Notes under the pieces: model-generated
What the model was told of the DNA's origin: nothing
Database searches by the model: none
What the model saw: the letters and a program-made list of their open reading frames with translations, nothing else
Position numbers and translations under genes: made by a program
Source of the DNA: Selenomonadaceae bacterium
Lineage (GTDB): Bacteria > Bacillota > Negativicutes > Selenomonadales > Selenomonadaceae
Length of the DNA: 64,000 nt
Direction: 5' to 3'
Assembly (NCBI GenBank): GCA_017527075.1
Contig: JAFXQM010000009.1
Location: 45,419-109,418, forward strand
Shown: piece by piece, positions 2,986 through 55,830 of the stretch
Layout: the number at the start of each line of letters is the position of its first letter
Position numbering within the stretch: the first letter of the stretch is position 1

Positions 2986-2986
2986 A

Positions 2987-3172
2987 ATGATAACGCCCGA
3001 ACTTTTGGCGCGGATAAATGAGCTGGCGCGGAAGAAACGCACGGTCGGTTTGACGCAAGAGGAACTCGCCGAGCAGAAGGAGCTTTACAAAATTTATCTG
3101 GCGGCGATACGCGGGCAAGTGACGAGCCTGCTGGAGAGCATTGAAATTGTTGACGTGGAGGTAAAGAAATGA
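2987..3172 (+). CDS. DUF896 (UPF0291)-family small protein, copy 2
   Basis: MITPELLARINELARKKRTVGLTQEELAEQKELYKIYLAAIRGQV shows the typical DUF896 helical motif. Confidence 0.7.
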   Translation: MITPELLARINELARKKRTVGLTQEELAEQKELYKIYLAAIRGQVTSLLESIEIVDVEVKK

Positions 3173-3954: not shown

Positions 3955-3986
3955 AAATTTCTGACTCGACTGAAGGGAGATTTTTC

Positions 3987-4352: not shown

Positions 4353-4374
4353 AAACTTTGGAGGAAAATTTTTC

Positions 4375-4743
4375 ATGGAGCTTTTGCAAAAAATTTACAC
4401 GACTCAAGGGCGGCTCAATCGTCTGCGCTTTTGGAAGTATTACGTGACTTGGCTGCTGATTTCCACGGTGATTGCTTTTGTTCTCGGATTCTTCCTCGGA
4501 TTTTTGACGATTGACCCGAAAAGTTTTTTGGTGACGGTGCCCGTGGGCATTTGGTCGTTCGTGGCGGGCGTCGGCACAATCATGATTAACATCCGCCGCC
4601 TGCATGATTTGGACAAGAGCGGCTGGTGGTTGCTGCTTGCGTTCGTTCCCATCGTCAATTTTATTTTCATGCTGTATGTTTGGCTCATGCCGGGCACGGT
4701 CGGTTGGAACAGATACGGAGCTGACCCGCTGCAAGATTATTAA
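4375..4743 (+). CDS. DUF805 inner-membrane protein (tandem paralog)
   Basis: QGRLNRLRFWKYY ... RRLHDLDKSGWW, with a GGAGG RBS upstream. Confidence 0.75.
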   Translation: MELLQKIYTTQGRLNRLRFWKYYVTWLLISTVIAFVLGFFLGFLTIDPKSFLVTVPVGIWSFVAGVGTIMINIRRLHDLDKSGWWLLLAFVPIVNFIFMLYVWLMPGTVGWNRYGADPLQDY

Positions 4744-4866
4744 TTTCTTCGCGCGCGCCGTGAAAAATTTTAACGCTGCTGCCGTGATTGAAGGATAAAA
4801 ATTTTTCGCGGCGAAATTTCTTTGAACAAAAATTTCATTACGCGTTGCAATTTGGAGGCGGATTTA

Positions 4867-5826: not shown

Positions 5827-5835
5827 AAAATTTTC

Positions 5836-5866
5836 AGCCCGCGCAACTTTTGGCGGGCTTTTTGTT
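5836..5866 (+). terminator. rho-independent terminator after cheV
   Basis: The stem is GCCCGC (5837-5842) / GCGGGC (5853-5858), followed by TTTTTG. Confidence 0.6.
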
Positions 5867-5890
5867 TGTTCAGAGAGGAGAAAAAATTTT

Positions 5891-6262
5891 ATGAGAAGTA
5901 TTCAAACGGAAAAGGCACCGGCGGCAGTCGGTCCGTACAGCCAGGCGATTAAAGTCAACGGGTTGCTTTACACGTCGGGGCAAATCGCAATCGACCCGGC
6001 CGTCGGAAAAATCGTCGCCACGACAATCGAAGGGCAAGCCGAGCAGTGTTGCAAAAATTTGGCGGCGATATTGGAGGCGGCGGGTTACGACTTCAGCGAA
6101 GTTTTCAAGACGACGTGCTTCCTGGCGGACATCGCCGACTTCAAAGCATTCAACGCGGTTTACGAAAAATATTTCGTCAGCAAACCCGCGCGCAGTTGCG
6201 TGGCCGTCAAAGAGTTGCCGCTGGGTGCTCTGTGCGAAATTGAATTGATTGCGGCGAAATGA
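5891..6262 (+). CDS. ridA: RidA/YjgF-family reactive-intermediate deaminase
   Basis: MRSIQTEKAPAAVGPYSQAIKVNGLLYTSGQIAIDP ... ARSCVAVKELPLGALCEIE is the canonical RidA sequence pattern. An RBS GAGAGGAG lies upstream. Confidence 0.9.
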   Translation: MRSIQTEKAPAAVGPYSQAIKVNGLLYTSGQIAIDPAVGKIVATTIEGQAEQCCKNLAAILEAAGYDFSEVFKTTCFLADIADFKAFNAVYEKYFVSKPARSCVAVKELPLGALCEIELIAAK

Positions 6263-7233: not shown

Positions 7234-7249
7234 TTGAAATTTTCTGTAT

Positions 7250-7325
7250 TGGTGGAGACGGAGGGATTCGAACCCTTGACCCCCAGATTGCGAACCTGAT
7301 GCTCTCCCAGCTGAGCTACGTCCCC
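7250..7325 (-). tRNA. tRNA-Ala (anticodon CGC), CCA encoded
   Basis: The reverse complement is GGGGACGTAGCTCAGCTGGGAGAGCATCAGGTTCGCAATCTGGGGGTCAAGGGTTCGAATCCCTCCGTCTCCACCA. It folds as a cloverleaf with anticodon loop TTCGCAA, the G3:U70 Ala identity pair and a GGTTCGAATCC T-arm. Confidence 0.9.
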
Positions 7326-7376
7326 AAAACGCGGCTATCTTAAATCATTTGCCGCGCGTTGTCAAGAAAATTTTTT

Positions 7377-7613
7377 TTAGTCAGCCGTGAACGGCAAGAG
7401 TGCAATGTTGCGCGCGCGTTTGATGGCGATTGTCACCTGACGCTGATGTTTGGCACAGTTGCCCGAAATGCGTCGCGGCAAAATTTTTCCGCGCTCGGTG
7501 GTGAAGCGGCGAAGCTTGGCCGCGTCCTTGTAATCTATCTTTTCAACTTTATCGACGCAAAACGCGCAAACCTTTCTGCGCGGGCGCCGACCTCTTTCTC
7601 TGCGCATCTTCAA
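7377..7613 (-). CDS. rpsR: 30S ribosomal protein S18
   Basis: [57 protein letters not shown]. Confidence 0.95.
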
Positions 7614-7619
7614 TCCTCC

Positions 7620-8093
7620 TCAGAAGGGTGTGTCGTCCGGGTCAACGGGCTCGCCGCCGTCGAAGTCGTCGAAAGAATTTTTCTTGGGCGGAGCAGGCTG
7701 ACGTCTCGAATAGCTGTCACTCGGCTGCTCGGAATAGCCGCCGCTCGGTTGCTCGGAATAATTTCCGCCGTCGGTGTTCACGCGCTTGGAGTCGGCGAAC
7801 TCAATGTTGTCAATCATGATGTCAACAGCATTGACTTTGACACCGTCTTTGTTCTCGTAGCTCGAAGTTTGCAAACGTCCCTCGACAAGAACACGCGAAC
7901 CTTTCATGAAGTAGCGTCCGCAAAATTCGGCGGTCTTCTCCCAAGCAATAAGGTTAAAGAAATCGACGGCGTCTTTGTCTTTGCTGTAAGGGCGACGAAC
8001 TGCAATGCCCATGCGAGTGAACGCTTTGCCCGTTTGTGTGTAACGAACTTCGGGGTCGCGAGTCAAATTGCCGGAAAGAAAAACCTTATTCAT
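7620..8093 (-). CDS. ssb: single-stranded DNA-binding protein
   Basis: MNKVFLSGNLTRDPEVRYTQTGKAFTRMGIAV is an OB fold. There is a Gly/Ser/Gln-rich linker and the acidic tip DDTPF. Confidence 0.95.
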   Translation of the reverse strand: MNKVFLSGNLTRDPEVRYTQTGKAFTRMGIAVRRPYSKDKDAVDFFNLIAWEKTAEFCGRYFMKGSRVLVEGRLQTSSYENKDGVKVNAVDIMIDNIEFADSKRVNTDGGNYSEQPSGGYSEQPSDSYSRRQPAPPKKNSFDDFDGGEPVDPDDTPF

Positions 8094-11302: not shown

Positions 11303-13036
11303 ATGGCAAAACAACTCAGTGCCGAACAAAAAACTATCAGCCAAATTTTTAGTGAACCCAGAGTCAATTTCTTGATTCCCGATTATCAACGCCCGTATTC
11401 ATGGAAACGTGAGCAGTGTGAAACGCTTTGGAATGACATAAAAGATTTTGCCTTTCCAAACGATAATTGCGATGACTTCAGTGATTCAGATACTTATTTT
11501 CTTGGAACGATTCTGACTTACGATAATAACAGCTCACAATATGAAGTTGTCGATGGTCAACAACGACTTGTGACTTTCCTGCTCATGCTTCGCGCCTTTT
11601 ACGATGCGTTTGGAAAAATGCAAGATAGCAAGGCAAAAAATATTTTGACGACTCTTGAACAATGCATTTGGAACACTGATAAATTTAGAAATCCCGACAA
11701 ATCCAGTCTCAAAATTATTTCCGAAGTTATAACGGATGGCGACAAAGATGAATTAAAAAAAATTATTACAACGGGCAAAACGACCAAGGGCAATACGAGC
11801 AATTACGCGCAGAATTATCGCGACTTTCAAAAATGGATTAAAGAGTTTATAGACCGCACGCCAGACTATTTCTCGCTGCTTCCGTTTAGAATTTTGGATA
11901 ACTGCATTCTCTTGCCGATAAAAGTTGATTCTCAAGAAACCGCGTTACAAATTTTTACGACGCTCAACGACCGCGGCATGCCCCTCTCCGACGCTGACAT
12001 TCTTAAGGCAAAGTTCTACAAGTTTTATTCTGACAACGAAGAAAAAAAAGAAGAATTTGTTCAGGATTGGAAAACATTGGAAGAACTTTGCGAAAAAATT
12101 TTTCATCCCAAAAAAGGAATTTCCCCTCTCGAAGAATTGTTCACGACGTACATGTATTATCTCAAAGCCAAAAACGGTTCCAGAACTACGAGTTTTAAAA
12201 GCCTGCGGAAGTTTTATGAACAAGATAACTACAAGTACTTGCAGAACGAAACTTTTGAAGATTTAAAATCTCTTGCCGACTTTTGGAAAGATATTTATTC
12301 TCGTAATTATAATCGCTTTTCCGAAAGAGTTCTTCGGCAACTTCATATTCTCGAATACTCCCCTTATGCGATATGGCGGCACGTTGTCTCAGCTTATTTC
12401 TTGGTGTATCGTAAAAATATGACCAGGGCAGACGATAAAGCATTTTATAATTTTCTGAAGAAATTGACGGCTTTCGTTCTGGCAAATTCTATATACAGAC
12501 CCGGGGTTGGCTCCATTCGTTTACCTATACACAATGAAATCGTCAATCTCTATGAAAAAAAGCCTTTCGAGTTCAAAGGTTTCAAATTCGAATTAGAGAT
12601 AATGAGTACAAAGCGTAAAGAGTTGGTTTTTTCAAATCAACGTCTAATTACGCGGGCAATGTTGGCTTGGTGGATTTTTCGTGATGAAGAGCAGGAACTG
12701 CCACCGATTGGTATGAAACTCGAAATCGAACACATTTACGCCAGAAGCCAAAAAGAAAACTTAAGTGATGAGAGTATTGTCGAACTTCTTGGCAATAAAA
12801 GTTTGCTGGAAAGTAACATAAACATTCAAGCTTCTGATTATCGTTTTGCTGACAAGAAAAAATATTATCTGGGTCAAAAACGAAATAAGAAGAAACAAGC
12901 GGGAACAAAGGTTTTAGAACTGCGGCACCTCGCCGAAAATTATGATGACTTCTCAGAAGAGGATATCGTCAGGCGCAACGAAAAAATTTTTGCCGCGTTC
13001 ACTAACTTCCTTCGCGAGCAAAATTTACTTCTTTAA
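11303..13036 (+). CDS. DUF262 + DUF1524 (GmrSD-like) protein, putative type IV restriction / modified-DNA nuclease
   Basis: N-terminal ParB-like DUF262 motifs (FLIPDYQRPYSW, DGQQRL) and a C-terminal His-Me finger-like LEIEHIYARSQ...LGNKSLLESNIN. The sequence is visibly more AT-rich than its neighbours. Confidence 0.75.
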   Translation: MAKQLSAEQKTISQIFSEPRVNFLIPDYQRPYSWKREQCETLWNDIKDFAFPNDNCDDFSDSDTYFLGTILTYDNNSSQYEVVDGQQRLVTFLLMLRAFYDAFGKMQDSKAKNILTTLEQCIWNTDKFRNPDKSSLKIISEVITDGDKDELKKIITTGKTTKGNTSNYAQNYRDFQKWIKEFIDRTPDYFSLLPFRILDNCILLPIKVDSQETALQIFTTLNDRGMPLSDADILKAKFYKFYSDNEEKKEEFVQDWKTLEELCEKIFHPKKGISPLEELFTTYMYYLKAKNGSRTTSFKSLRKFYEQDNYKYLQNETFEDLKSLADFWKDIYSRNYNRFSERVLRQLHILEYSPYAIWRHVVSAYFLVYRKNMTRADDKAFYNFLKKLTAFVLANSIYRPGVGSIRLPIHNEIVNLYEKKPFEFKGFKFELEIMSTKRKELVFSNQRLITRAMLAWWIFRDEEQELPPIGMKLEIEHIYARSQKENLSDESIVELLGNKSLLESNINIQASDYRFADKKKYYLGQKRNKKKQAGTKVLELRHLAENYDDFSEEDIVRRNEKIFAAFTNFLREQNLLL

Positions 13037-41389: not shown

Positions 41390-43282
41390 TCAATCCAGCC
41401 GCGTCTTGGTGATTTCGTCCCAGCGGTCGCCGAAATATTCCGCGAGCCGCCATTCGATTTGCCGATGATAAGTGACGGACGTGACGGGCGCTGACGAATC
41501 TTGAAAAGCGTACCTGCCGATTTTCCTCAGCGCGGCGGGCAAGACCAAACTTTTCAGCCCGCAAAACTTGAACGCCTCGTCGCCAATCTCCGTCAGGCTT
41601 TCGGGGAAGACGACGTGCGTAATTTGCTTGCAGTTGTAAAATTTTCTGTCCTCAATGCGAGTGAGCCCTTCGCGCAAGACGAGCACACCGCCGCGAGGAT
41701 TTTTTTGTTCGGAGTCGCGATAAAGTTCCTCCAAAATGTTTTGAGCTTTTTCATCGCCGCAAGCCGCCAAAGCCTTCAACTTCAAAATCAAATCCAAATC
41801 GCCGCGCTTAACCGCATTGAACTTTTCTTGCGCGGAAATTTTTTCGCCCAAAATTTTTTCCGCGTCGTCAAAGAAATTTTTTATCGGGTCGTCGGCGGAT
41901 TCGGAAGCAAAAAATTTTTCGCCGTAAAGTTTGACGAGCTCACCGACGGCGAAAGTGTCATTGGCCGTTGTCGCCTCGAAAAGTTCAATCGCCTGCGCGC
42001 GAAGTTTTTCGGCGTCGACGTATCCGACGAGCCGCGCCAACTCGATGAACTTGCTGTCGGCAAAAATTTTTTCGTCGCCCCGCGAAGAAATGCTGCGGAA
42101 AATTTTCTCCGCCGTGGAAAGATTTTTTTGCACGCCCAGACCTTTGGCGTAAATCAATCCGACGCAAATTTTTTCGTTCACGTCGTCGGTCGCGCGCCGC
42201 AGACAAGTTTCAAAAAGTTGATTGGCTCTGCCGAGTTGCCGAAGTTTGCTCAGGCAAAGATTCGCCAGCTCAAATTGCGCGATGAAATCGTTCCGAAGTT
42301 TTTCATAAACATTTCGCGCCCTGTGATAAAAATTTTTCGCGGCGGCTTCGTCGTGGTTCGCGGCGCGGATGTCGCCCAAAGTTTTCAACGCGTCGGCATA
42401 AGCTCTGTTCTCCGTCCGCTTGACGAACATGCCGCCCTCCACCGCGTGAATTTGCGCATGGCAATTTTTGCACACGACCATCAAATTGCCGCGGCGGTTG
42501 TCGCCCTGATTGTGATTCTTGTGATGAATTTCAAGTTCGGCGGGCAAAAATTTTTTGCGGCAGACTTCGCAGGTGAAGTCGACGTTTTTTTTCAGCGAGA
42601 ATTTTTTTTGCGCGGAGAGGACGTAAATTTTTTTTACGGCGGAAACGTCCGTGAACTCGACGGGCGGGAAGTCGGATTCATTTGCCTTGGCACTCAGCAA
42701 AAACTCCGCGATGTCGAAGTCATCAACGATTCGCTGACGCATTGCGCGGTCGCCGCCCTTCCAAAGTTCTTTGCCCGCTCCGCAGTATCGCCGAAAATTT
42801 TTCCAGTTCAGCTCGCGCAAACAATGCTGACAAACTTTCAGCCGCCGATAAACATTTTGCTCGCGCGGCTCGCCGTCGACGAACAAGTTCACCAAAAAAT
42901 TTCCGCGCGTTTCATACGTCATGACGTATCGGGATTCGTAACGATTTTTCTTTTGCGAGTCGCGCAAGTGTTGGCAGAAGCACAGGTGGAAGCGGTTATA
43001 ATTTTCTGCCGCGTATCTTTGCCGTGAAAGATATTGGTCGCGGATGTAAAGGATGACGGCGTGCTCCTTGTAAGCGAAGGGGACGAGCGGCGCGAATTTT
43101 TTCCCAAGCTCTTCCAAAATTTTTTGGTCGAACTCTTTGCCCTCCGAAAAATCTTTTCGTTCGGCGGCGGTCAGGGTCGGCAGGGAAAAATTTTCCGCCG
43201 CCAATTTTATTTGGCTGTCGCTTATGCCCATCGCCGCGAAAATTTTTTGGAACGGCTCCAAAATTTTTTCAGCGTTGCTCAT
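41390..43282 (-). CDS. HNH nuclease fused to helical (Sel1-like) repeats and a C-terminal BspA-type leucine-rich repeat; ZorE-like effector candidate
   Basis: The HNH core is FTCEVCRKKFLPAELEIHHKNHNQGDNRRGNLMVVCKNCHAQIH. A Sel1-like unit reads GLIYAKGLGVQKNLSTAEKIF. The LRR_5-like end reads FPESLTEIGDEAFKFCGLKSLVLPAALRKIGRYAF. The start overlaps the upstream gene. Confidence 0.6.
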   Translation of the reverse strand: MSNAEKILEPFQKIFAAMGISDSQIKLAAENFSLPTLTAAERKDFSEGKEFDQKILEELGKKFAPLVPFAYKEHAVILYIRDQYLSRQRYAAENYNRFHLCFCQHLRDSQKKNRYESRYVMTYETRGNFLVNLFVDGEPREQNVYRRLKVCQHCLRELNWKNFRRYCGAGKELWKGGDRAMRQRIVDDFDIAEFLLSAKANESDFPPVEFTDVSAVKKIYVLSAQKKFSLKKNVDFTCEVCRKKFLPAELEIHHKNHNQGDNRRGNLMVVCKNCHAQIHAVEGGMFVKRTENRAYADALKTLGDIRAANHDEAAAKNFYHRARNVYEKLRNDFIAQFELANLCLSKLRQLGRANQLFETCLRRATDDVNEKICVGLIYAKGLGVQKNLSTAEKIFRSISSRGDEKIFADSKFIELARLVGYVDAEKLRAQAIELFEATTANDTFAVGELVKLYGEKFFASESADDPIKNFFDDAEKILGEKISAQEKFNAVKRGDLDLILKLKALAACGDEKAQNILEELYRDSEQKNPRGGVLVLREGLTRIEDRKFYNCKQITHVVFPESLTEIGDEAFKFCGLKSLVLPAALRKIGRYAFQDSSAPVTSVTYHRQIEWRLAEYFGDRWDEITKTRLD

Positions 43283-43926
43283 TGATTTTGTTCAGCTCCT
43301 TCTCCGCGTTCCGCCGAATGCTGATTTCCACACAGCGCGAGGCCGTCGCATTCCGAGTGTCCGCCTTGCTGAAGGACGCGCCGTTCGCCCTGAGTTTGTC
43401 GACGAGCCACTGCCGCTTTTCGGGCGTCTGCAAGGCGTTGAGCGTGAAGACGTTGCAAGACGTTGAAGGCTCTGTCCTGCGAAAGTTTCATGTTGTAAAA
43501 GTAAGCCTCGTTGGAATTCACGTCGCCGCTCCACTCCGGGGAGGCGTTGCCCTCGATTCGAACCTCGACAATCTCGGCGGAATATTTTTCCAAGACTTTC
43601 ATGTAACGCGGAAAAAATTCTGCGAGCACCGCTTGGAAATTCGGATTGACGGTGCTGTCGCCCGCCGCGAAAAAAACTGACGGCGACACAAAAATTATCC
43701 GCAAGTCGTCCTCCTCAATCTTCGCGCCGAGCCGCGCCATGTCTTCGGGCTTGAACTCGTCGATTAAGTCTTGGTGAATTTGATTTTTGATTTGTTCATA
43801 ACGATTGACGGTTTCTTTCATCTGAAAAAGGAAGCCCATGCACACGAACAGAAAAATCATCATCAAGCCGGTCATCATGTCGGAAATGGATTGCCAAATG
43901 CCGTCGTCGTTGCGTTTGAAAATCAT
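43279..43926 (-). CDS. MotB/ExbD-plug + OmpA-like peptidoglycan-binding protein (ZorB-like), C-terminus frameshifted
   Basis: The TM helix carries the conserved Asp (WQSISDMMTGLMMIFLFV). The OmpA-like region reads FFAAGDSTVNPNF...VRIEGNASPEW...MKLSQDRAFNV. After about 43466 the plausible continuation (..LRANGASFSKADTRNATASRCVEISIRR..) lies in another frame. Confidence 0.6.
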   Translation of the reverse strand: MIFKRNDDGIWQSISDMMTGLMMIFLFVCMGFLFQMKETVNRYEQIKNQIHQDLIDEFKPEDMARLGAKIEEDDLRIIFVSPSVFFAAGDSTVNPNFQAVLAEFFPRYMKVLEKYSAEIVEVRIEGNASPEWSGDVNSNEAYFYNMKLSQDRAFNVLQRLHAQRLADARKAAVARRQTQGERRVLQQGGHSECDGLALCGNQHSAERGEGAEQNQ

Positions 43927-45323
43927 CCTGCCCGCCGCCTTTCGAGGAGCAGCTTATCAAGCTCCACGATTCTTGAGATAAAGATTTGGTAATTGCTGAC
44001 CAGCTTTCCGCTTATTTCTGCCAAAGCCGCCGCGAGATTTTGTATCGCCTTGCCCGATTGCTCGTCGGTATTTTTCGCGACGGTCTCAAACAGCCGGTGC
44101 AATGTGCTCAAAGATTCTTTCGTCTCCTTGTCCAAGTCCGCCTTGAAGCTCGCGATTGTCTTTCGGATAACTTCCATTGACTTCGCGCTCGTGTCGTTGA
44201 AGTCTTTCAGGTAATGTTGCTTGTCGAGTGAAACGCTTTGCGCGACGGAATTTATTTTCTTGACTTCGGCGGCGAAATTTTTTGCAAGCGAATCGATGTT
44301 GCCCGGATGATTTCTCAGGACGGAAAGATTTTTATTCAAGGCGTCTTCGCTGAACCTGCCAAAATTTTCCGTGAGGGTTTGCATTTGGTTGATACTCTCT
44401 TCCGCCTGCGAAATTACTTTGGAAAGTTGAGCGGTCGCGGCGTACAGTTCTTGTTGCACGGAAATATTTGCCGCGCTCGTGTCAGAAAAAATTTGCAGAG
44501 AATTTTGGAGCGCGCCAAGAATTTCGCGGTTAAAAGTTTCGTTGATGACTTTGAGCTCGGCGGTCGTCAGCTCGACGATATTTTTGTACTCGCGCTGCCA
44601 CGTGACCACTTCGCGGACGGCGGCGTTGAGTTCCTTGAAATTTTCGCCGAATTGCGTTTGGAGTTGGACGTTGAGATTTTTGATTGACTCGTTGAGTGCC
44701 GCGATAAAATTTTCGCTGAAATTTTTCGCGACGTCCCGCATGAAGCTGTCGAAGGAATTTTTCATGGCGTCGAGGCGGGCGGCTTGGCTCTGCCCGAAGG
44801 CTTCGATACTCCCCGCGAGGGTCGCGCTCAAGTTCGATAAACTTTCGGATTGCGCGTTCATGGCGGCGGAAAGATTTTTCATGTCGGGCGCGAAAGTTTC
44901 CATTGCCGTGACGAGCCTGCCCAACTCCCGCTGAAGATTTAAATTGTCGTTGGCAGCGTTGCCGGTCTCAATCGCCGCCAAAATTTTTTCCAACGTCCCT
45001 TTGACTGAATCGCTGTCGGCGTGGTCAATATCCCGCTGATAAAATTTTATCGCGAGCCCCGCGCCCATTCCGACAATCGAAGTCACGAAGGCCAACCTCA
45101 TGCCGTCGAGAAAAGCGTTTATGCTTTCGACCATGTTGGCGGCGTTCGTGTCGAAGTTGTAAAGCCCGTAAGCAATTCCGATGAAAGTGAACAGCACGCC
45201 GACCGTCACGACGTGTTGGGCTCCGCTGTCGAGAATTTTTTTCTGCGCGTTCCGATAAGAATTAAACGCAATGCCGCCGCAAACGCCCGCGCAGACAAAA
45301 ATTAAAATCCATGATAAATTCAA
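43923..45323 (-). CDS. MotA/ExbB-like 3-TM protein with a ~370-aa coiled-coil tail (ZorA-like)
   Basis: The TM helices fall at about residues 5-22, 40-58 and 78-96 (TVGVLFTFIGIAYGL, AFVTSIVGMGAGLAIKF). The rest is a long heptad-rich, low-complexity helical tail. The TTG at 45323 is better spaced from GGGAGG than the track start at 45329. The stop overlaps the next start (ATGA). Confidence 0.55.
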   Translation of the reverse strand: MNLSWILIFVCAGVCGGIAFNSYRNAQKKILDSGAQHVVTVGVLFTFIGIAYGLYNFDTNAANMVESINAFLDGMRLAFVTSIVGMGAGLAIKFYQRDIDHADSDSVKGTLEKILAAIETGNAANDNLNLQRELGRLVTAMETFAPDMKNLSAAMNAQSESLSNLSATLAGSIEAFGQSQAARLDAMKNSFDSFMRDVAKNFSENFIAALNESIKNLNVQLQTQFGENFKELNAAVREVVTWQREYKNIVELTTAELKVINETFNREILGALQNSLQIFSDTSAANISVQQELYAATAQLSKVISQAEESINQMQTLTENFGRFSEDALNKNLSVLRNHPGNIDSLAKNFAAEVKKINSVAQSVSLDKQHYLKDFNDTSAKSMEVIRKTIASFKADLDKETKESLSTLHRLFETVAKNTDEQSGKAIQNLAAALAEISGKLVSNYQIFISRIVELDKLLLERRRAG

Positions 45324-45384
45324 AGCCAAGCCTCCCGAAAAATTTTTGCGGCGATTATATCACAGCGGCGACGAAATTTCTTGG

Positions 45385-45909
45385 ATGATTGGAAAGTTGG
45401 TGATTGATTTGCGACGGCTGACGGCGAACGCGATTTTGATTTCCGTGTCGCTGATTTTATTTTTCGTGGAGGGATTGTTGCCGCCGCTCATGCTGCCGCC
45501 CGGCGCGAAGTTCGGCTTGGCAAACGTGGTGACGTTGGTCGCGCTGTACCGGCTGACGGAGGTCGACGCGCTGATAATTTTGTCGGCGAGAATTTTTTTG
45601 GCGGGAGTGTTCGCGGGTTCGCCGACGGTGATTTTGTTCAGCGCGAGCGGCGGGCTGATGAGTTTGGCGGCGATGATTTTGCTCAAGCGCGCGGAAAAAT
45701 TTTCAGTGGTCGGAGTGAGTGCGGCGGGCGGATTCTTCCACAACCTCGGACAAATTTTCGCGGCGATGATTTTCATGGGCAGCGAGAAAATTTTTTTCTA
45801 CCTGCCGATTCTTGGAGTGTGCGGAATTTTTGTCGGCGGGCTGGTCGGTTTGCTCGCGAAGGAAATTTTCCGACGGCTCCCGCCTAATCGCGGCGACGGG
45901 ACAAATTGA
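45385..45909 (+). CDS. Gx transporter family protein (heptaprenyl diphosphate synthase component I-like membrane protein)
   Basis: LPPGAKFGLANVVTLVALY plus further TM helices. The ATG at 45385 is internal to ORF 45271..45909, and the start is uncertain. Confidence 0.65.
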   Translation: MIGKLVIDLRRLTANAILISVSLILFFVEGLLPPLMLPPGAKFGLANVVTLVALYRLTEVDALIILSARIFLAGVFAGSPTVILFSASGGLMSLAAMILLKRAEKFSVVGVSAAGGFFHNLGQIFAAMIFMGSEKIFFYLPILGVCGIFVGGLVGLLAKEIFRRLPPNRGDGTN

Positions 45910-46041
45910 AATTATGCTCTCCCAATCCTCCGCGCGGCTCTCGTCAAAAAAAATTCTGCCGTGCTCGTAAATCACTCCGCCGAACTCAGATTCACTCACG
46001 CACGCCAGGCACCGCACGCAAATTTTTTCGTCGTAAATCAT
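45703..46041 (-). CDS. small single-cluster [4Fe-4S] ferredoxin-like protein with an odd C-terminal extension
   Basis: MIYDEKICVRCLACVSESEFGG...ESIISICPVAAI has the CxxCxxC...CP pattern. The frame stays open for another ~59 codons antisense to the 3' end of the Gx gene. Confidence 0.4.
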   Translation of the reverse strand: MIYDEKICVRCLACVSESEFGGVIYEHGRIFFDESRAEDWESIISICPVAAIRREPSENFLREQTDQPADKNSAHSKNRQVEKNFLAAHENHRRENLSEVVEESARRTHSDH

Positions 46042-46074
46042 TTGCACACTCAGCTCCCGAATGAAAAGTTTCCT

Positions 46075-46104
46075 TGACAAAAACTTGAACAAAGCTTTAT
46101 CATA
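46075..46104 (+). promoter_or_regulatory. sigma-70-like promoter for the condensation-domain gene
   Basis: TTGACA (46075-46080), an 18-nt spacer, then TATCAT (46099-46104). Confidence 0.4.
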
Positions 46105-46151
46105 AGCAACAGTGGGAAAAAATTTTTTCGTCGTGTAAGGAGGCAAAGCTC

Positions 46152-47390
46152 ATGAAATATTATCCCTTGCGCCCGATGCAAAGATGGTTGGTCGACACGC
46201 ACTTCAACAAGGCAAAGTCGACGATGATGAATATCGGCGGACTGTTCAAGCTCTCCGCGTCGATTGACATGAATCACTTGGCGGACGCGATTAACTTCGT
46301 CTTGGAAAAGTATGACATCTTCCGTTGCAGATTTATCTTTCACCCCGAGACCAGCGACTTGTGCCAGATTTTCGACGGCGCGATAGAAAAAGTTTTTCTC
46401 GAACGCCTCAGCGAAAAAGAATTCAATCGGCGCATGGAAAGTTTGCGCGAGCCGTATTATCTGATTAATCACCCGCTCTATCGGATTTACCTGATGGAAA
46501 CGCCGCAAGCCAAATATCTTTACGTGGATTTCTATCACGCGATAATGGACGGCGTGGCGAGTTCGTATCTGTTCGCCAAAGCGATAGACGCTGCTTATCG
46601 CGGACGCACCAAGAGTGCGGCTCCGAGTTACGCCGAGTACGTCGAAGAAGAAGCGAAGATTCCGCCCGAAGAACTTGCCGAAGGTCACGAGTACTGGAAG
46701 AAAATGCTTGCGCCCTTCGACGAGAAAAAACATTTGCCGCCCGTGAAGGTCGAAGGCGTCGCGGCATGGACTCAGGGCAAGCTGGATTACTACTTCAAAA
46801 ATTTCACGGAAGAATTTTTCCGCACGACACGAATCAACGAGAACAATTTCTTCCTCGGCGCGTGCATGTTGACGCTGGCGAAGCTGACCGGCACCAAAGA
46901 ATCAATCATGAGCTGGATACACAACGGGCGCACGAACATGCGCGAGCGTCGGCTGATGGGTTTGATGCTTGAGCAGTATCCGTGCGCGTGGGATTTCCAC
47001 CAAGACATGACAATCGAAGAATTCCTCAACCGACTCGAAGGACAGAATCAAATCGGCATGAGATATCGCAAGAGCCTCGACCTCGTTTACAACGAAGGAC
47101 TCGAAGACGATTGCGTGAGTTTCATTTTCCAGAAGATGATGCACGACGATATCATTTTGGCCGACACGCCCGCCCAAACGATTTACCTGCCGCCGAACGA
47201 AATTTCCGCCGTGGAAAATGCTCTCGACATTGAAGTTGAAGCGGACGAGACGGGAATGTACATCGTGGCTCTCGATTACGACGCGAGCCGTTACTCCGAA
47301 GAGGAAATGATTAACTTCGCCAAGACAATGAACGAAATTTTAATCACCATGCGCGACACGAACAAAAAATTCTCCGACATCCTCGGCTGA
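46152..47390 (+). CDS. stand-alone NRPS-type condensation (C) domain protein
   Basis: 412 aa with an N-terminus YPLRPMQRWLV. The active-site motif is YHAIMDG (46533-46553), a variant of HHxxxDG that retains the second (catalytic) His. No A, T or TE domain is nearby. Confidence 0.75.
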   Translation: MKYYPLRPMQRWLVDTHFNKAKSTMMNIGGLFKLSASIDMNHLADAINFVLEKYDIFRCRFIFHPETSDLCQIFDGAIEKVFLERLSEKEFNRRMESLREPYYLINHPLYRIYLMETPQAKYLYVDFYHAIMDGVASSYLFAKAIDAAYRGRTKSAAPSYAEYVEEEAKIPPEELAEGHEYWKKMLAPFDEKKHLPPVKVEGVAAWTQGKLDYYFKNFTEEFFRTTRINENNFFLGACMLTLAKLTGTKESIMSWIHNGRTNMRERRLMGLMLEQYPCAWDFHQDMTIEEFLNRLEGQNQIGMRYRKSLDLVYNEGLEDDCVSFIFQKMMHDDIILADTPAQTIYLPPNEISAVENALDIEVEADETGMYIVALDYDASRYSEEEMINFAKTMNEILITMRDTNKKFSDILG

Positions 47391-47410
47391 AAATTTTGGA
47401 GGCGATGACG

Positions 47411-47596
47411 ATGGCAAACAAATTCGACGACAAAATTTCCAAGAACGAAACGCTCAGCGAAGAACAACTCGACGAAGTGACGGGCGGCTTGGAAAATCCG
47501 CGCATTCCGAGCTTCATGATGATTTCTCAACGCTCCGAAGCTTTTCGCTCGACCGACAACCCGAACACTTGGCTGAACGACCGAAAATATTTCTGA
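47411..47596 (+). CDS. 61-aa peptide with a double-glycine leader (bacteriocin/RiPP-precursor-like)
   Basis: MANKFDDKISKNETLSEEQLDEVTGG|LENPRIPSFMMISQRSEAFRSTDNPNTWLNDRKYF. LSEEQLDEVTGG fits the LSxxELxxIxGG consensus. GGAGG (47398-47402) lies 8 nt before the ATG at 47411. Confidence 0.55.
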   Translation: MANKFDDKISKNETLSEEQLDEVTGGLENPRIPSFMMISQRSEAFRSTDNPNTWLNDRKYF

Positions 47597-47659
47597 CGGA
47601 CGAAAAAAATTTAAGCGACGCCTCAATCAAGAGACGCCGCTTTTTGATTTCCCGTGAGC

Positions 47660-47928
47660 TGACTGCCCCCTCTTAACGTAAGAGTGGTCACGCAGAATTT
47701 TTCGTCGTTGCTGAGGCGCGTCATGTTCATTCGGGTTGAAAAATTTTTTCGTTTGTTGAATCAACTTTTCTTTTGCGTGCCCAAAAGAAAAGTTGCAAAA
47801 GAAAAGGGCACCTCGCAGGGGCGACTGCCGTTTCATGACTCGAACGTGCGAATCACCCGTGCCGGGTGTGCCCGCTGAATTCGCGTCACGCTCATTACGC
47901 GGGCGGCCGCCCGTCCATGGGCGGCTTC
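47660..47928 (+). repeat. structured interspersed element, copy C
   Basis: Hairpins CCCCCTCTT/AAGAGTGG, ACTTTTCTTTTG/CAAAAGAAAAGT, GCCCGC/GCGGGC and GCCGCCC/GGGCGGC (47905-47925). Conserved block GGGCACCTCGCAGGGGCG. Confidence 0.8.
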
Positions 47929-47949
47929 AAATTCCGCGGCTCGTCACTT

Positions 47950-48342
47950 TCATTCGGCTGATAAAAATTTTTTCGTCGCGCGAGCCTCTTCCATGCGCGC
48001 GGAAATTTCTTCCAGCGAACGCCCGCCCGAAGACTCCACCGCCGCCAGCACCGCGCCTTCGACCAGCGGGCAGTCAATCATCACGACGTTCGGCTTGTCC
48101 AAATCTTCCAAGACCATTTCCGTCGTCATGACCGCCGAGCCCATGTCCATGAGAATCATCACGCCGTCCGCCGAGTAAACTTCTTCGACAGCCGCGAAAA
48201 TTTTTTCGTAATTTGTGCCGAGTGAGCCGTCCTCCAATCCGCCCGCCGCCGCCAGTGGAGCGTCCGCCGCCATCATGCGCGCGACTTCGACGACACCTTC
48301 GGCGAGTTTTTGGCTGTGCGAGACGATTACGATTCCAACCAT
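47950..48342 (-). CDS. dhaM: dihydroxyacetone kinase phosphotransfer subunit DhaM (EIIA-mannose-like)
   Basis: MVGIVIVSHSQKLAEGVVEVARMM...ILMDMGSAVMTTEM. Confidence 0.85.
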   Translation of the reverse strand: MVGIVIVSHSQKLAEGVVEVARMMAADAPLAAAGGLEDGSLGTNYEKIFAAVEEVYSADGVMILMDMGSAVMTTEMVLEDLDKPNVVMIDCPLVEGAVLAAVESSGGRSLEEISARMEEARATKKFLSAE

Positions 48343-48343
48343 T

Positions 48344-48973
48344 TCAATCCTCCCGCAAAATTTCCAAAGCCGTCTGCAACATGAACAGCGAGGAGGTTGC
48401 GCCGGGGTCTTGGTGACCGAGGCTGCGTTCCTTCAGGTAACTGGCGCGACCTTTCGTGGCGATAATCGTCTTGGTGTATTCGACGCCCGCCGCCGCCGCT
48501 GCCACTGCGTCACTGAGCGCGTCGACCAAATTTTTTCCGCCGTCGATTCCGTCCTTGAGAGCTTTGTGAGCGGGGCACAGCGCGTCGAGCATGGTCTTCT
48601 CGCCTTCGACTGCCTTGCCGCGCATTTTTATTCCGTTGACTGCCGCCTCCAGAGCCGCCGCAAATTCTTCAGCCGTGAGTTCAAATTTTCCTTTGCAAGC
48701 GTTGCCCGCCTTCATGAACGCCGTGCCGTAAAGAGGACCCGACGCGCCGCCGACTGTGGAAACAAGCTGAGTGCCGACGCCTTTTAAAATCGCGCCGATG
48801 TCTTTGTCCGCCAGGCTCGGAAGTTTTTCTTCCACGCTTTTGAAACCGCGCGCGAGATTTATTCCGTGGTCGCCGTCGCCGATTTCGTTGTCCAGCTGAG
48901 TGAGAAAATCTTTCTCCGCCTCAATCTTTTTGGCAATGGCAAAAATTATCGCGAGAATTTTTTTCGTGTCCAT
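48344..48973 (-). CDS. dhaL: dihydroxyacetone kinase ADP-binding subunit DhaL
   Basis: LDNEIGDGDHGINLARGF...GGASGPLYGTAF. Confidence 0.9.
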   Translation of the reverse strand: MDTKKILAIIFAIAKKIEAEKDFLTQLDNEIGDGDHGINLARGFKSVEEKLPSLADKDIGAILKGVGTQLVSTVGGASGPLYGTAFMKAGNACKGKFELTAEEFAAALEAAVNGIKMRGKAVEGEKTMLDALCPAHKALKDGIDGGKNLVDALSDAVAAAAAGVEYTKTIIATKGRASYLKERSLGHQDPGATSSLFMLQTALEILRED

Positions 48974-48976
48974 GGC

Positions 48977-49969
48977 TTACCTCTTGAGCGCGGGAGTGTC
49001 GGCGGGTGCGTCGTAAAGTTTCTTGAGCTCGTCATCAAGCTTGAGCAACGTGAGCGAGAAGCCCGCCATTTCGATTGACGTCATGTAATTGCCGACCATG
49101 GTGTCATAAACTTTGACGCCCGCCGCCGCCAGATAATCCTGCACAAAGTTGTTGATGATGTAAAGTTCCATGAGCGGCGTCGCGCCCATGCCGTTGACCA
49201 TGACGACGACTTCGCTGCCCTTGAAGTCAATGTCCGCCAAAATTTTGTCGAGGAGAGCCTTGGCGATTTCGTCGGCGGAAGCAATTTTTTCGCGGTGAGT
49301 ACCGGGCTCGCCGTGAATGCCGATTCCGATTTCCACTTCGTCTTCGCGCAGCTCGAAGCCGGGCTTGCCCGCCGCGGGAACTGTGCACGGAGAAATTGCC
49401 ATGCCCATCGTCCGAACGTTGGCGATAACTTTTTCGGCAACGGCTTTGACTTCCTCAAGCGTCGCGCCTTCCTCAGCCTTCGCGCCCGCGATTTTGTGCA
49501 CGAGGATTGTGCCGGCCACGCCGCGTCGACCAGTGGTGTAAAGGCTGTCCTGCACCGCCACATCATCGTTGACGACCACATGGTCAACCTTTATGTCCTC
49601 GTCAGCCGCCATGTCGATTGCCATCTCGAAGTTGAGGACGTCGCCCGTATAATTTTTTACGATACACAGCACGCCCGCCTCAGTCGCGACAGCTTTAATG
49701 CCCTCGAAAATTTTGTCGGGCGTCGGCGAAGTGAAAACCGCTCCTGCCACCGCGCAGTCCAGCATGCCCGCGCCGACGAAGCCGCCGTGTGCAGGCTCGT
49801 GACCTGAACCGCCGCCGCTGACGAGTGCAACTTTCCCGTCGGATTTTTTCTCCGCGCGCACGACCACGTTTCCGCAGTCCAGCTTGCGAAGTTTATCGGG
49901 CGCGCTCTTGACCAGACCCAAAATCATCTGCTCCTCCACGGCCTCCACCGAGTTTATCAGCTTCTTCAT
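48977..49969 (-). CDS. dhaK: dihydroxyacetone kinase substrate-binding subunit DhaK
   Basis: MKKLINSVEAVEEQMILG...VSGGGSGHEPAHGGFVG...NYTGDVLNF. ATG at 49969 follows GGGAGGG. Confidence 0.9.
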   Translation of the reverse strand: MKKLINSVEAVEEQMILGLVKSAPDKLRKLDCGNVVVRAEKKSDGKVALVSGGGSGHEPAHGGFVGAGMLDCAVAGAVFTSPTPDKIFEGIKAVATEAGVLCIVKNYTGDVLNFEMAIDMAADEDIKVDHVVVNDDVAVQDSLYTTGRRGVAGTILVHKIAGAKAEEGATLEEVKAVAEKVIANVRTMGMAISPCTVPAAGKPGFELREDEVEIGIGIHGEPGTHREKIASADEIAKALLDKILADIDFKGSEVVVMVNGMGATPLMELYIINNFVQDYLAAAGVKVYDTMVGNYMTSIEMAGFSLTLLKLDDELKKLYDAPADTPALKR

Positions 49970-50430: not shown

Positions 50431-50487
50431 TTTCTCAAGCGAGAAAAATTTATCACACACGCGCCGATAAGTCAAGGAGTGATTCAA

Positions 50488-51147
50488 ATGATTGTTTACG
50501 CGACGCACGCCGGCGGAAAATATTTGCCGCTCAAAAAAAGTTTGGAGATTGATTCGACGACGCCGCGCGGGCTTTACATAAACCTGACCAACCGCTGCAA
50601 CTGCGATTGCGTTTTTTGCCTGCGCCAAAAAAAATCCATGGCAAAAGATTCGAGCCTGTGGCTGGAGCGCGAGCCGACCGTCGCCGAAGTCAAAGCCGAG
50701 TTGGACGCCGCGTCGTGGCAAGTCGTCAAGGAAGTTGTCTTCTGCGGCTTCGGCGAACCGACGATTCGTTTGCCCGAACTCGTCGAGCTTTTGGCTTACG
50801 TGAAAAAAATTCAGCCGCTCATGCCCACGCGCCTCAACACGAACGGCTTGGGCGAACTTTATCACGGGCGAGAGATTGCCGCGGACTTTGAAAAAATTTT
50901 GGACACGGTGTCAATCAGTTTGAACGCCGCGACCGCCGAAAAATATTTCAAACTCACGCGCGCCGCTTACGGGATAAAATCCTTCGACGCGATGTTGACC
51001 TTCGCCGAGCACATGAAAAATTTCGTGCCGCATGTCGTGCTGACCGTCGTCGACCACGTCACGCCGCCCGAAGAAATTTCTGCCTGCAAAAAAATTTGTG
51101 ACGCGCGCGGATTAACTTTGCGCGTCCGCCCGTACGAGGACAGTTAG
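50488..51147 (+). CDS. radical SAM protein (TatD-associated radical SAM family-like)
   Basis: The CNCDCVFC (CxxxCxxC) cluster motif and GFGEPT. ATG at 50488 follows AAGGAG. Confidence 0.8.
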   Translation: MIVYATHAGGKYLPLKKSLEIDSTTPRGLYINLTNRCNCDCVFCLRQKKSMAKDSSLWLEREPTVAEVKAELDAASWQVVKEVVFCGFGEPTIRLPELVELLAYVKKIQPLMPTRLNTNGLGELYHGREIAADFEKILDTVSISLNAATAEKYFKLTRAAYGIKSFDAMLTFAEHMKNFVPHVVLTVVDHVTPPEEISACKKICDARGLTLRVRPYEDS

Positions 51148-53710: not shown

Positions 53711-53868
53711 GCAGACGTTTCATGCGACACATTTTGATTTTGGAATAAAATTTTTTTCGGCAAAGGAAGTTCCTGATTTTGTAAATGAAACGAGTGCTTT
53801 TACTTCCCGCCGACAGAACGGGGGCGGTCATTGACTGCCCTCGTTTCGTTTTGAGAGGAGGATTTCTC

Positions 53869-55830
53869 ATGGAACAAGTCAATGAAGTTTTCGATTTCGT
53901 CAAAGCCGTTTTGAATCTGTTCAAGGCCGTGCCGAAGCTCGAAGAAAAAAATTTTTCCGAATACACTTTGGACAATGAAAAAAATCTCGCGGAAGGTTTC
54001 TTCGTCACGGAGGAGGCGTTCAAATTTTGTCCGCCCGTCGCCGACGAAAAAATCCTCAGCTTCATCAAGGAAAAGTTCGGGCAAAATATTTTTGAACTGA
54101 ATCGCGGCTTTTACAAATCATTCGCGACCGTCGCCGCCTCCTCGCAGGAAAAAATTTTGGCGAACAAACTCCTTCATTACATGTCGACCTACGGGCTGGA
54201 AAGTTTCGGGCTCTTCGACAGGGAATTGGTTTACATTCCGAACGACGCGTTGGAGCTGCCCGAAGACGCCAAGCCGATAAAAATTTTTGTCGTCAACGCG
54301 CTCGACGACGCCGAAATAAAATCGCGCGCGGTGAAGATGATTCAATCGGGCGCGGCTCTCTCCAAAGAAACGCTCGACGACCTCGCCGCCGTGATAAAAT
54401 TCCTCGGCATTGAATTGAACTTCGACGACGTGCCCAACAAAGAATTCGCGATAAGACTCTTCAAGCTGCTGAACATTTTGCCCGACGACCCCGTGCAATT
54501 TTTGCGCTTCATGATTTACGACCTCACCGGCTCGACGCTGCTGATAAAGGACAAGGACACCATTTTTCGTCTGTGTTACTCCGACTACTCCTACGTGGAC
54601 GTTGACGAAAAATTTTCCCGATACATTTCAAAGAACGGGCTCGCAAAGTTGGCGGGCGTCTTCCACCGATTCAAACCGCTGTGGCTGGCGTTCAAGCCGC
54701 ACTCGGATTACATGCGCGCGACGATAAATAAAATGCGCAAGCTCGCCGACCGCCACCACAAACCTTTGACGCCGAAACTTTTGGAGCGACTGACCTCCGC
54801 CGAAAAAATTTCTCTCGACGAACTCAAAGCCGAACTCGCAAACGTCACGGTCTTCAAAAAAGTTTCGCTCGCCAACGCGCTGCTTTATCGAAGTGCCGCG
54901 CCCGAAAGTATCGTTTACAACATTCGCAACGGCAAAGCTTTCGCGGAAGATTTTCACGGCGGCCTGAAGTTCGACGCGCAAAAAATTCTCGACGCGATTG
55001 TCGGCTCGATTGTCGAAGACCTCAGCCCGAACGTCAGCGGCAAAAAAATTTTCATCCCCGACCGATTCACTTACGCCGTGCCCGTCAGCGAGAAAAAATT
55101 TATCGGCAACATTCCTTACGGTTCGTCTTACGCGTTCGAAAAAAATTCTGTCGTCTTGGGCGTGCACTGGTTCAATCTCGTCATCGACGGCAAGGAAGAA
55201 CGCGTCGATTTGGATTTGCATTTGAACTCGGAAAAGCGCGACCTCGGCTGGCAAAATGATTTCGACGACAAAAATTTTTTCGACAGCAGGGAACGCAAGG
55301 TAATTTTCTCCGGCGACATGACCGACGCCCCGATTGCCGGCGGCGGCGCGACCGAGGCTTTCTTCGTCGGCGAAAAACTCACGGACGAGACGCTCATGCT
55401 CAACCTTAACAATTACACTTACGGTCGTTCGGACAGAGGCGTGCCGTTCAAGTTGATTCTCGCCGACGTGGCGCAGGAAAAAATCGACAGGAAATATTTG
55501 CTCGACGCGCATGAAATTGGTTTTTGCGTGCCGAGTGAAATTTCTTCGGGCGAAATGTTTTTGGGCTTCCTCCTCAGCGACGAGAGCGGCGCGAAAAAAT
55601 TTTATTTCTTCTCGCGGAGCACGGGCGAAAGAATCGTCGCGCGGAGTGACGAGCTGACCGGCAAGGTTACTTCGGCGATGCTGACGACTTTTAAATCGTG
55701 CCTGAGCTTGAACGAACTTTTGCGGGCGGCGGGCGCGGTGCTCGACGACGTGACTGCCGACGACTGCGAAATAAATCTCGACCCCGCCGAAGTCACCAAA
55801 GACACTTTGCTCGGCCTGTTCGCCAAATAA
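53869..55830 (+). CDS. large hypothetical protein (653 aa) with a TerD-like beta-sandwich segment
   Basis: ATG at 53869 follows GAGAGGAGG. The segment VLGVHWFNLVIDGKEERVDLDLHLNS...KVIFSGDMTDAPIAGGGATEAFFV...LMLNLNNYT resembles the TerD pattern (DLDxxxxx...sGDnltG.g..dE.i.v.l). I do not recognise the N-terminal ~430 aa. Confidence 0.6.
   Translation: MEQVNEVFDFVKAVLNLFKAVPKLEEKNFSEYTLDNEKNLAEGFFVTEEAFKFCPPVADEKILSFIKEKFGQNIFELNRGFYKSFATVAASSQEKILANKLLHYMSTYGLESFGLFDRELVYIPNDALELPEDAKPIKIFVVNALDDAEIKSRAVKMIQSGAALSKETLDDLAAVIKFLGIELNFDDVPNKEFAIRLFKLLNILPDDPVQFLRFMIYDLTGSTLLIKDKDTIFRLCYSDYSYVDVDEKFSRYISKNGLAKLAGVFHRFKPLWLAFKPHSDYMRATINKMRKLADRHHKPLTPKLLERLTSAEKISLDELKAELANVTVFKKVSLANALLYRSAAPESIVYNIRNGKAFAEDFHGGLKFDAQKILDAIVGSIVEDLSPNVSGKKIFIPDRFTYAVPVSEKKFIGNIPYGSSYAFEKNSVVLGVHWFNLVIDGKEERVDLDLHLNSEKRDLGWQNDFDDKNFFDSRERKVIFSGDMTDAPIAGGGATEAFFVGEKLTDETLMLNLNNYTYGRSDRGVPFKLILADVAQEKIDRKYLLDAHEIGFCVPSEISSGEMFLGFLLSDESGAKKFYFFSRSTGERIVARSDELTGKVTSAMLTTFKSCLSLNELLRAAGAVLDDVTADDCEINLDPAEVTKDTLLGLFAK

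Follow-up and report, generated by a model that had tools for sequence, protein, structure and literature searches.

Nonribosomal peptide synthetases (NRPS) and the pathways to peptides that are made on ribosomes and modified after translation (RiPPs) are the two major routes by which peptide natural products are made, and documented cross-talk between them is rare. On the nonribosomal side, VibH is a free-standing condensation (C) domain that uses an amine acceptor not bound to a carrier. Free-standing C domains with acceptors of this kind, in the form of polyamines, are established in the fabclavine and zeamine pathways (PMC8842026), and the known acylations and lipidations of RiPPs use GNAT enzymes (PMC13647313, PMC8842026). 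In the literature searched there was no precedent for a C domain that matures a ribosomal or double-glycine (GG) precursor. Here we describe a two-gene unit from a stretch of 64,000 nucleotides of contig JAFXQM010000009.1, hereafter the window, whose host is an uncultured, Quinella-like Selenomonadaceae bacterium of the rumen. In this unit the gene for a stand-alone NRPS C protein is followed directly by a small gene for a peptide with a leader that resembles those of GG precursors.

The pairing of enzyme and peptide is real and undescribed. What is best supported is that the two genes form a real, expressed enzyme-peptide operon and that the peptide depends on the company of the C gene. The original prediction for this DNA went further and proposed that the C domain acts on the ribosomal peptide, a claim for which the case is circumstantial.

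A transcribed operon of two genes

The unit begins with a sigma-70-like promoter 5′ of the C gene (TTGACA, 18 nt, TATCAT; positions 46074-46103, + strand) that matches 11 of the 12 consensus positions. Its −35 box is the point where conservation among sister contigs starts, even when the DNA further upstream is unrelated, as in L089. A ribosome binding site (RBS) read from the sequence, AAGGAGG (46137-46143, +), stands 8 nt ahead of the ATG at 46152, and the C gene extends from there to 47390 (+; stop codon 47388-47390), encoding a protein of 412 amino acids (aa) assigned to Pfam PF00668. The active-site motif YHAIMDG (Y128-G134; 46533-46553, +), a variant of HHxxxDG, is conserved family-wide. 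Exactly 20 nt separate the C stop from the ATG at 47411 of the peptide open reading frame (ORF), and within them lies a second RBS, GGAGG (47398-47402, +), again 8 nt ahead of the start; every sister contig keeps it, with ATG or TTG as the start codon.

The peptide ORF has 61 codons (47411-47596, +), and its product (MANKFDDKISKNETLSEEQLDEVTGG / LENPRIPSFMMISQRSEAFRSTDNPNTWLNDRKYF) divides into a leader and a core. The leader, MANKFDDKISKNETLSEEQLDEVTGG, is 26 aa long (47411-47488, +) and has a double-glycine end, with the LSEEQLDEVTGG stretch at 47453-47488. The core (47489-47596 with the stop codon, +) is 35 aa long, reads LENPRIPSF...TDNPNTWLNDRKYF and is Cys-free, and its ORF is intact in all sister contigs. 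The original prediction had given the coordinates of both ORFs, the motif and the 20-nt gap exactly, and a regular-expression search confirmed its match of the leader to the LSxxELxxIxGG consensus ahead of a 35-aa core lacking Cys.

A GC-rich hairpin followed by a T-run at 47613-47642, found by scanning and folding, is a probable (bidirectional) terminator that closes the unit. The terminator scan scored 12 pairs on the − strand, and the + strand folds at −14 kcal/mol with a UUUUU tail and a z score of −1.1, which is modest. The hairpin sequence recurs with 90-93% nucleotide identity behind the peptide genes of other subfamilies (L015, L026, L066, L092-94). In sister contigs with C proteins 92-100% identical to that of the window, the order of C gene, 61-aa ORF, hairpin and convergent dhaMLK genes is retained, and the DNA 5′ of the promoter varies among a Zorya island, a TonB/ExbBD locus or other content.

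Rumen metatranscriptome assemblies from four runs cover 46141-47619, and some of their contigs bridge the 3′ end of the C gene and the entire peptide ORF, in data that are unstranded and may include some DNA carry-over. Metatranscriptome depth is zero across 45600-46069. Because contigs span the end of the C gene together with the peptide ORF, conservation runs from the −35 box to the hairpin, and the flanking depth is zero, we conclude that 46074-47642 is a self-contained, transcribed bicistronic operon consisting of promoter, C gene, peptide gene and terminator.

The short ORF, whose lack of conservation would have told against the original prediction, is intact, co-transcribed and constrained in its leader. 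No frameshift or stop was found in it among the sister contigs, in which synonymous divergence (dS) of the C gene from that of the window reaches 0.26. The leader is nearly invariant in relatives with C proteins 92-99% identical, and the core in sister contigs has both ends invariant and a variable middle. Within subfamilies, the ratio of nonsynonymous to synonymous divergence (dN/dS) is 0.2-0.3 for the leader, 0.1-0.27 for the C gene and 0.4-1.5 for the core. We conclude that the leader is under purifying selection and that the core is fast-evolving.

A regular expression for GG leaders gave 8 matches in a six-frame scan of ~1 Mb (78 loci and the window), 6 of which were these peptides; because the pattern is so rare in that scan, a GG motif directly behind the C gene is not a chance event. 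Searched with a profile, 5.8 billion proteins yielded only ~20 clusters of the peptide, all of them 61-64 aa long and all from rumen data, which split into five core types with the same architecture throughout. One unrelated Nif11-leader peptide with the same ELSDEELERVAGG end also appeared in that search, and a metagenome scan with the B-type peptide subfamily recovered only 2 loci. In an alignment of seven peptides from the loci (A1), the invariant leader columns besides Met1 are E13, L15, L20 and the GG pair, and the cores are unalignable. The cores of the family are Cys-free and strongly hydrophilic, with a grand average of hydropathy (GRAVY) of −0.5 to −1.3 (about −1.0 for the window core) and a charge of −0.6 to +2.9.

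All seven of the family members compared with hidden Markov models (HMMs) of GG leaders matched weakly and below cutoff (TIGR01847, 14.0 against 15.7 bits; NF038167, 16.9 against 32), and the window peptide had no Pfam or curated family match above threshold. The peptide resembles the GG leader peptides and is at most a candidate member of that group: its HMM matches fall short of the cutoffs and the window lacks a peptidase-containing ABC transporter (PCAT). Two other identities were considered and rejected: a mini carrier protein with a GGxS phosphopantetheine site, as A1 has no conserved Ser after the GG, and a pearlin-like scaffold peptide, as the C-terminal residues are unconserved.

The condensation enzyme and its clade

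The C protein matches PF00668 over residues 3-400 (profile positions 4-433 of 456) with an E value of 5.3e-39 and 134.6 bits against a cutoff of 30.6. An AlphaFold2 model built with a multiple sequence alignment (pLDDT 88.7, pTM 0.85; a single-sequence model reached a pLDDT of only 37) has the two-lobe, V-shaped pseudo-dimer fold. Foldseek with this model returned solved C domains (Txo2, SrfA-C, TycC6, TycB, PvdL and LgrA) at an E value of 1e-24 and TM scores of 0.77-0.84, and it also matched RzmA-Cs, CmnI and SgcC5; the fold search does not discriminate the C-domain subtype. In YHAIMDG, Tyr takes the place of the first His of HHxxxDG; the catalytic second His is retained, as are the Asp and the Gly. 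The longer motif D-F-Y-H-A-I/V-M-D-G is present in 77 of 82 distinct family members, the other 5 retaining H-x3-D-G, and DFYHAIMDG is found even in members of 43-51% identity; alignment A2 shows no variation at D133 or G134 and conservation of at least 90% at H129. Profile, motif and fold all place the protein in the NRPS C-domain family, in agreement with the signature that had first drawn attention to it. The adenylation (A) and thiolation (T) domains that form the usual carrier context of this family are absent from the 64-kb window, as are thioesterase (TE) domains, lanthipeptide enzymes and C39 ABC exporters, and the early statement that none of these lies nearby therefore holds for the window.

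A total of 450 C homologues were recovered, the best 120 of which are 66-99% identical and come from rumen or ruminant-gut metagenomes and from Selenomonadaceae and Quinella metagenome-assembled genomes; every source that carries a name is a rumen member of the Selenomonadaceae. An exhaustive HMMER scan of 1.84 billion representatives found only ~15 clusters of stand-alone relatives, 410-550 aa in length, and next below these stood ordinary megasynthetase C domains of 21-28% identity. VibH was not recovered at the thresholds used.

Gene neighbourhoods were clustered over 78 genome loci. In Succiniclasticum and Selenomonas ruminantium the order is a dCache-HAMP-PP2C gene, a STAS-C fusion (529-549 aa), an A-T-C synthetase (1210 aa), a MATE-HATPase_c_2-like fusion and a STAS gene. 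This arrangement implies phospho-switch control of the biosynthetic enzyme, or its tethering to the exporter. Such mini-NRPS and partner-switch loci include L041, L043, L048, L060, L062, L073 and others (Succiniclasticum ruminis DSM 9236, Selenomonas ruminantium ATCC 12561); their PP2C domain is SpoIIE-type, their HATPase_c_2 domain is anti-sigma-kinase-like, and the N-terminus of A-T-C looks like a remnant C-lobe. At other loci, between one and three C genes in tandem are accompanied by DUF6056, GT2 and MATE genes. Tandem duplications were seen in L034 (three copies, 2197-6247), L037, L012 and L030, and the copies in L034 are flanked by DUF6056 (GT-C-like), GT2 (GtrB-like) and MATE genes. These neighbours in L034 hint at a role in envelope-glycan modification for some members of the C family.

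The Quinella-like branch, with C proteins of at least 64% identity to the query, has lost both the STAS domain and A-T-C, and its genes usually run MATE, C, a variable slot, potABCD and MPG. In ~30 loci the C gene is followed, 96-150 nt on, by a PotA-like ATPase (TOBE_2), two permeases and an SBP_bac_1 protein, with a MATE gene 5′ of C. At several other chromosomal sites (the window, L002, L011, L014, L017, L019 and L023), C occurs without potABCD and with unrelated neighbours. In L009 and L010 a secreted VanX-like D-Ala-D-Ala dipeptidase (Peptidase_M15; 7252-7974) occupies the slot between C and potA, and 5′ of C there is an IS605 TnpB-like ORF in L025 (4965-5828) and a frameshifted Fic-like ORF in L098 (330-909). 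Such varied cargo around the C gene would fit a recombination hot spot.

Wherever the context of a peptide locus could be read in the 5.8-billion-protein search, a C gene of the same clade lies upstream. The C gene lies directly 5′ of the peptide, with a gap of 5-75 nt, in the window clade and in L015, L025, L026, L066, L092-94 and L096-99; in most loci the gap is 5-22 nt and the Shine-Dalgarno (SD) sequence falls within the 3′ end of C. This tight spacing, the SD sequence inside C and the shared terminator ahead of potA link the peptide with C and not with the transporter genes. In the C tree, peptides are confined to the branch without an A-T-C partner. In the window clade C is at another site, beside dhaKLM and without potABCD or MATE, and the peptide is with C there too. 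This clade is the only clearly independent observation, one in which the peptide moved or stayed with C and not with potABCD. The linkage from peptide to C is absolute, and that from C to peptide is weak.

What the enzyme may do to the peptide

Our tentatively favoured reading is that the unit joins an orphan stand-alone C enzyme to a dedicated GG-leader peptide, which the enzyme would modify in a RiPP-like manner. A more specific form of it, in which C was recruited as a RiPP maturase after loss of A-T-C and (amino)acylates a leader-guided ribosomal peptide in Quinella-like bacteria, is possible but doubtful. Under the favoured reading the enzyme would have lost the A-T-C, STAS and MATE partners of its distant relatives, and because of that loss the donor would be a thioester of primary metabolism, acyl-acyl carrier protein or acyl-coenzyme A, as with starter and free-standing C domains. 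From it an acyl or aminoacyl group would be passed to the leader-bound peptide, at one of its amines or hydroxyls, and the product would be an acylated (lipo)peptide in which a very hydrophilic core gains amphiphilic character. The leader would then be cut at the GG and the product exported by an unlinked transporter. RiPP-like modification explains the exclusive linkage of peptide to C, the pattern of selection on leader and core, the hydrophilic cores and the presence of peptides only where A-T-C has been lost. The cores are too hydrophilic for unmodified membrane-active bacteriocins.

Several observations weigh against this reading, and its support comes from few independent events. Roughly 20% of Quinella-clade C genes have an adjacent peptide; the ~80% that do not are yet intact and under purifying selection. 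None of the Selenomonas and Succiniclasticum C genes has an adjacent peptide, and these are still intact. In the C tree, peptide-bearing genes are scattered among peptide-less ones and are not monophyletic, and a search for diagnostic residues found no C residue that separates the two kinds of locus. The variable slot may be empty or may hold a GG peptide, an MFS gene and a peptide, an MFS gene alone or a VanX-like M15 dipeptidase; in L016 and L018 the MFS gene stands between C and the peptide, and the L100 contig ends inside that MFS gene. Across peptide loci PotA is 93-94% identical and C only 65-70%, from which it follows that most peptide loci are one orthologous, fast-evolving slot that was vertically inherited, not independent associations. 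Independent support for co-occurrence amounts to about two events. In L026 the peptide gene (7248-7436) has an in-frame TAG in its leader (DER*LDNVVGG; relatives have Q) beside an intact C gene, and it is either a recent pseudogene or an assembly error.

The enzyme and its surroundings add to these difficulties. In profile comparisons, the solved sequences that come closest are elongation C domains, namely BacC (1.9e-40; after an epimerization domain), PvdL, TycC6, TycB1 and LgrA, and the starter C domain RzmA-Cs is a weaker sequence match. The C clade was ancestrally part of a small NRPS locus with STAS-C, A-T-C and a MATE exporter. No carrier protein, donor-forming enzyme, GG protease or exporter was found within the 64-kb window. 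Most C relatives have no peptide, so the enzyme clearly serves a further function that does not depend on one, and the peptide is best seen as an accessory, lineage-specific acceptor and not as the sole substrate. The original prediction had proposed to follow the linkage of C homologues to GG peptides in other genomes and had named a lack of such linkage as refuting it. Seen from the peptide, all evaluable loci have C; seen from the enzyme, the linkage is largely lacking, most homologues having no small peptide beside them. Its central claim, that the C domain acts on a ribosomal peptide, accordingly keeps the exclusive pairing, the GG leader and the hypervariable core in its favour and has the peptide-less majority of the clade against it.

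The alternative that survives best is that the peptide is an unmodified bacteriocin-like or pheromone-like signal with a GG leader, processed by a PCAT elsewhere, which has borrowed the cargo slot and the promoter of C, with the substrate of C being an unrelated small molecule or envelope component. We regard this as somewhat unlikely. It accounts for the conservation of C where no peptide is present and for a slot between C and potA that can be empty or hold other cargo such as MFS and VanX-like genes, and it fits a set of peptide loci that is mostly one orthologous position. The leader resembles the GG leaders of bacteriocins and of NHLP/Nif11 precursors (including P0141), and peptides used in competition or signalling typically have rapidly evolving cores. 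Set against it, in the 5.8 billion proteins and among loci with context, the peptide family was never found away from the C clade, nor beside a PCAT, an immunity gene or a sensor kinase. The peptide remained with C, and not with potABCD, after the locus had moved; the cores, with their negative GRAVY and near-neutral to modest positive charge, are unlike class II bacteriocins; and the 64-kb window has no PCAT.

It is improbable that the peptide is instead a partner that binds or regulates C or an exporter without covalent change, whether as a replacement for STAS and partner-switching control, as a scaffold or as an inhibitor. The STAS-C fusions flanked by PP2C and MATE-HATPase_c_2 suggest that the clade was ancestrally under protein-protein switching, the STAS domain has been lost in Quinella-clade proteins, and the conserved acidic leader could serve as a binding module. 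A hypervariable C-terminal two-thirds is unexpected in a regulator, however, most STAS-less C genes also lack a peptide, and there is no precedent for such an arrangement.

Still less probable is that C joins a thioester to an imported polyamine or small amine in the manner of VibH, fabclavine and zeamine and that the peptide is irrelevant. The frequent position of C by potABCD and MATE or MFS exporters (~30 loci with the PotA-like set) speaks for this, as does the existence of free-standing C domains with polyamine acceptors (PMC8842026). The contrast between PotA and C identity makes the adjacency look like conserved synteny beside a variable island, a terminator hairpin lies between peptide and potA, and C occurs at several sites without potABCD, including the window, which has no such transporter. 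PotABCD as a functional partner was down-weighted on the grounds of that identity contrast and that terminator. That the small ORF is a chance ORF in the 3′ untranslated region (UTR) of the C gene is very improbable: it has no Pfam or curated family match above threshold and no proteomic support, but its SD sequence and start codon are conserved, it is intact in all sister contigs examined, its leader is under protein-level purifying selection and the same architecture occurs in five diverged subfamilies.

If RiPP-like modification by the C enzyme is true, the use of a genetically encoded peptide by a C domain would represent a new biosynthetic logic and a natural case of a ribosomal substrate replacing a thiotemplated one. 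Its products would form a new class of ribosomal lipopeptide, and the pair would offer a compact tool of two genes with which lipopeptides could be made from sequences encoded in DNA. Should the peptide not be the substrate, the analysis still defines three things that had no annotation before: a rumen-specific clade of stand-alone C proteins, an ancestral mini-NRPS/MATE locus regulated by a partner switch, and a new family of GG-leader peptides in the uncultured, abundant and low-methane-associated Quinella group of the rumen, all of them transcribed in vivo.

Neighbouring genes and described systems

Within the window, tblastn found no homologues of the MATE, A-T-C or MFS proteins and no potABCD of the Quinella-locus type. 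None of the five window ORFs of at least 500 aa is a PCAT, PCATs were also absent from the related loci examined within ±3-8 kb, and no small membrane-protein gene of the immunity type adjoins the peptide ORF. The original prediction saw no radical-SAM maturase in the neighbourhood; there is a small radical-SAM gene at 50479-51147, which was rejected as a maturase because it belongs to a TatD-associated family without SPASM. It lies in a separate unit beyond dhaKLM. The ferredoxin-like ORF at 45703-46041, which the same prediction placed in the shared promoter region, proved unrelated. It was rejected as a member of the unit: its Fer4 matches are sub-threshold (E value 0.0018), it lies antisense to a real gene, and sister contigs that retain C and the peptide have it disrupted or deleted or lack it. 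The gene beneath it, Hpre_diP_synt_I (45271-45909, +; E value 4.9e-37), has its 3′ end overlapped by the ferredoxin-like ORF over 207 nt. Public gene calls place two hypothetical ORFs of 108 and 114 aa (45360-45686 and 45703-46047, −) antisense to 45271-45909; we read the + strand Hpre_diP_synt_I gene, not these antisense calls, as the real gene.

A complete type II Zorya anti-phage system was identified by PADLOC at 41390-45329 (−) with E values of 1e-34 to 5e-53. It comprises ZorA2 (43923-45329, −), ZorB2 (43279-43926, −) and ZorE2, an HNH nuclease with a C-terminal BspA-type LRR extension (41390-43282, −). Zorya is present, divergent or absent in sister contigs and thus forms a variable island directly 5′ of the C-peptide unit. 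PADLOC gave no defence-system match for C or the peptide. A second defence gene of the window encodes a GmrSD-type restriction endonuclease (11303-13036, +; GmrSD_N at an E value of 3e-39, with GmrSD_C), and a 681-aa ORF 3′ of uvrA (53785-55830, +) had no Pfam or NCBIfam match.

The intergenic segment 47762-47949, which lies between the terminator of the peptide gene and the stop of dhaM, reaches a metatranscriptome contig depth of up to 1410, against ~6-50 for the C gene. Many of the contigs over it diverge on both sides, and the segment is single-copy in the window. Its minus strand folds strongly (−87 kcal/mol, z −4.0), with no Rfam match at E<0.1, and an Rfam scan of 45000-49000 also gave no match; the segment may be an undescribed, abundant small RNA or a 3′UTR element. 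Counted together with variants that differ by one mismatch, the 15-mer AAAATTTTTTCGTCG has 25 occurrences in the window, where 0.8 are expected (for example at 42063, 46119, 47964 and 51868). This word, over-represented genome-wide, sits in genic and intergenic DNA, including just 5′ of the RBS of the C gene.

Among described systems, the free-standing C enzymes VibH (vibriobactin), the FclL/Zmn type (fabclavine/zeamine) and SgcC5 are likewise single-domain proteins of ~410-450 aa with the CAT-like two-lobe C fold, HxxxDG and no surrounding module. Their clusters supply a carrier-bound donor, whereas the window operon consists of enzyme and ribosomal peptide only, and by sequence the window protein is nearer to in-line elongation C domains than to these free-standing ones. 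On the ribosomal side, the selidamides (KspN/KspA), goadvionin (GdvG), lipolanthines and lipoavitides likewise have a precursor with a GG-ended leader and a variable core beside an acyl-transfer enzyme (PMC13647313, PMC8842026). As in these N-acyltransferase pairs, the outcome predicted for the window pair, a hypothetical one, would be a ribosomal lipopeptide. The characterised pairs all have a GNAT fold and leaders of NHLP/Nif11 size, whereas the system described here has an NRPS C domain and short leaders (23-27 aa).

The window leader also fits the LSxxELxxIxGG consensus of class II bacteriocins, microcins and competence or Blp pheromones, with weak sub-cutoff matches to TIGR01847, CTB-family bacteriocin, class IIb bacteriocin, NHLP and Nif11 models. 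Unlike those bacteriocins and pheromones, the window peptide has no nearby PCAT, immunity, accessory or two-component genes, and its core is hydrophilic. The uncharacterised mini-NRPS loci of Selenomonadales (dCache-HAMP-PP2C/STAS-C/A-T-C/MATE-HATPase_c_2/STAS) belong to the same C clade at 43-51% identity, carry DFYHAIMDG and have a MATE-type neighbour in common with many Quinella loci. Compared with them, the window protein is without STAS, and the window locus is without A-T-C, MATE and partner-switch genes and has the peptide instead.

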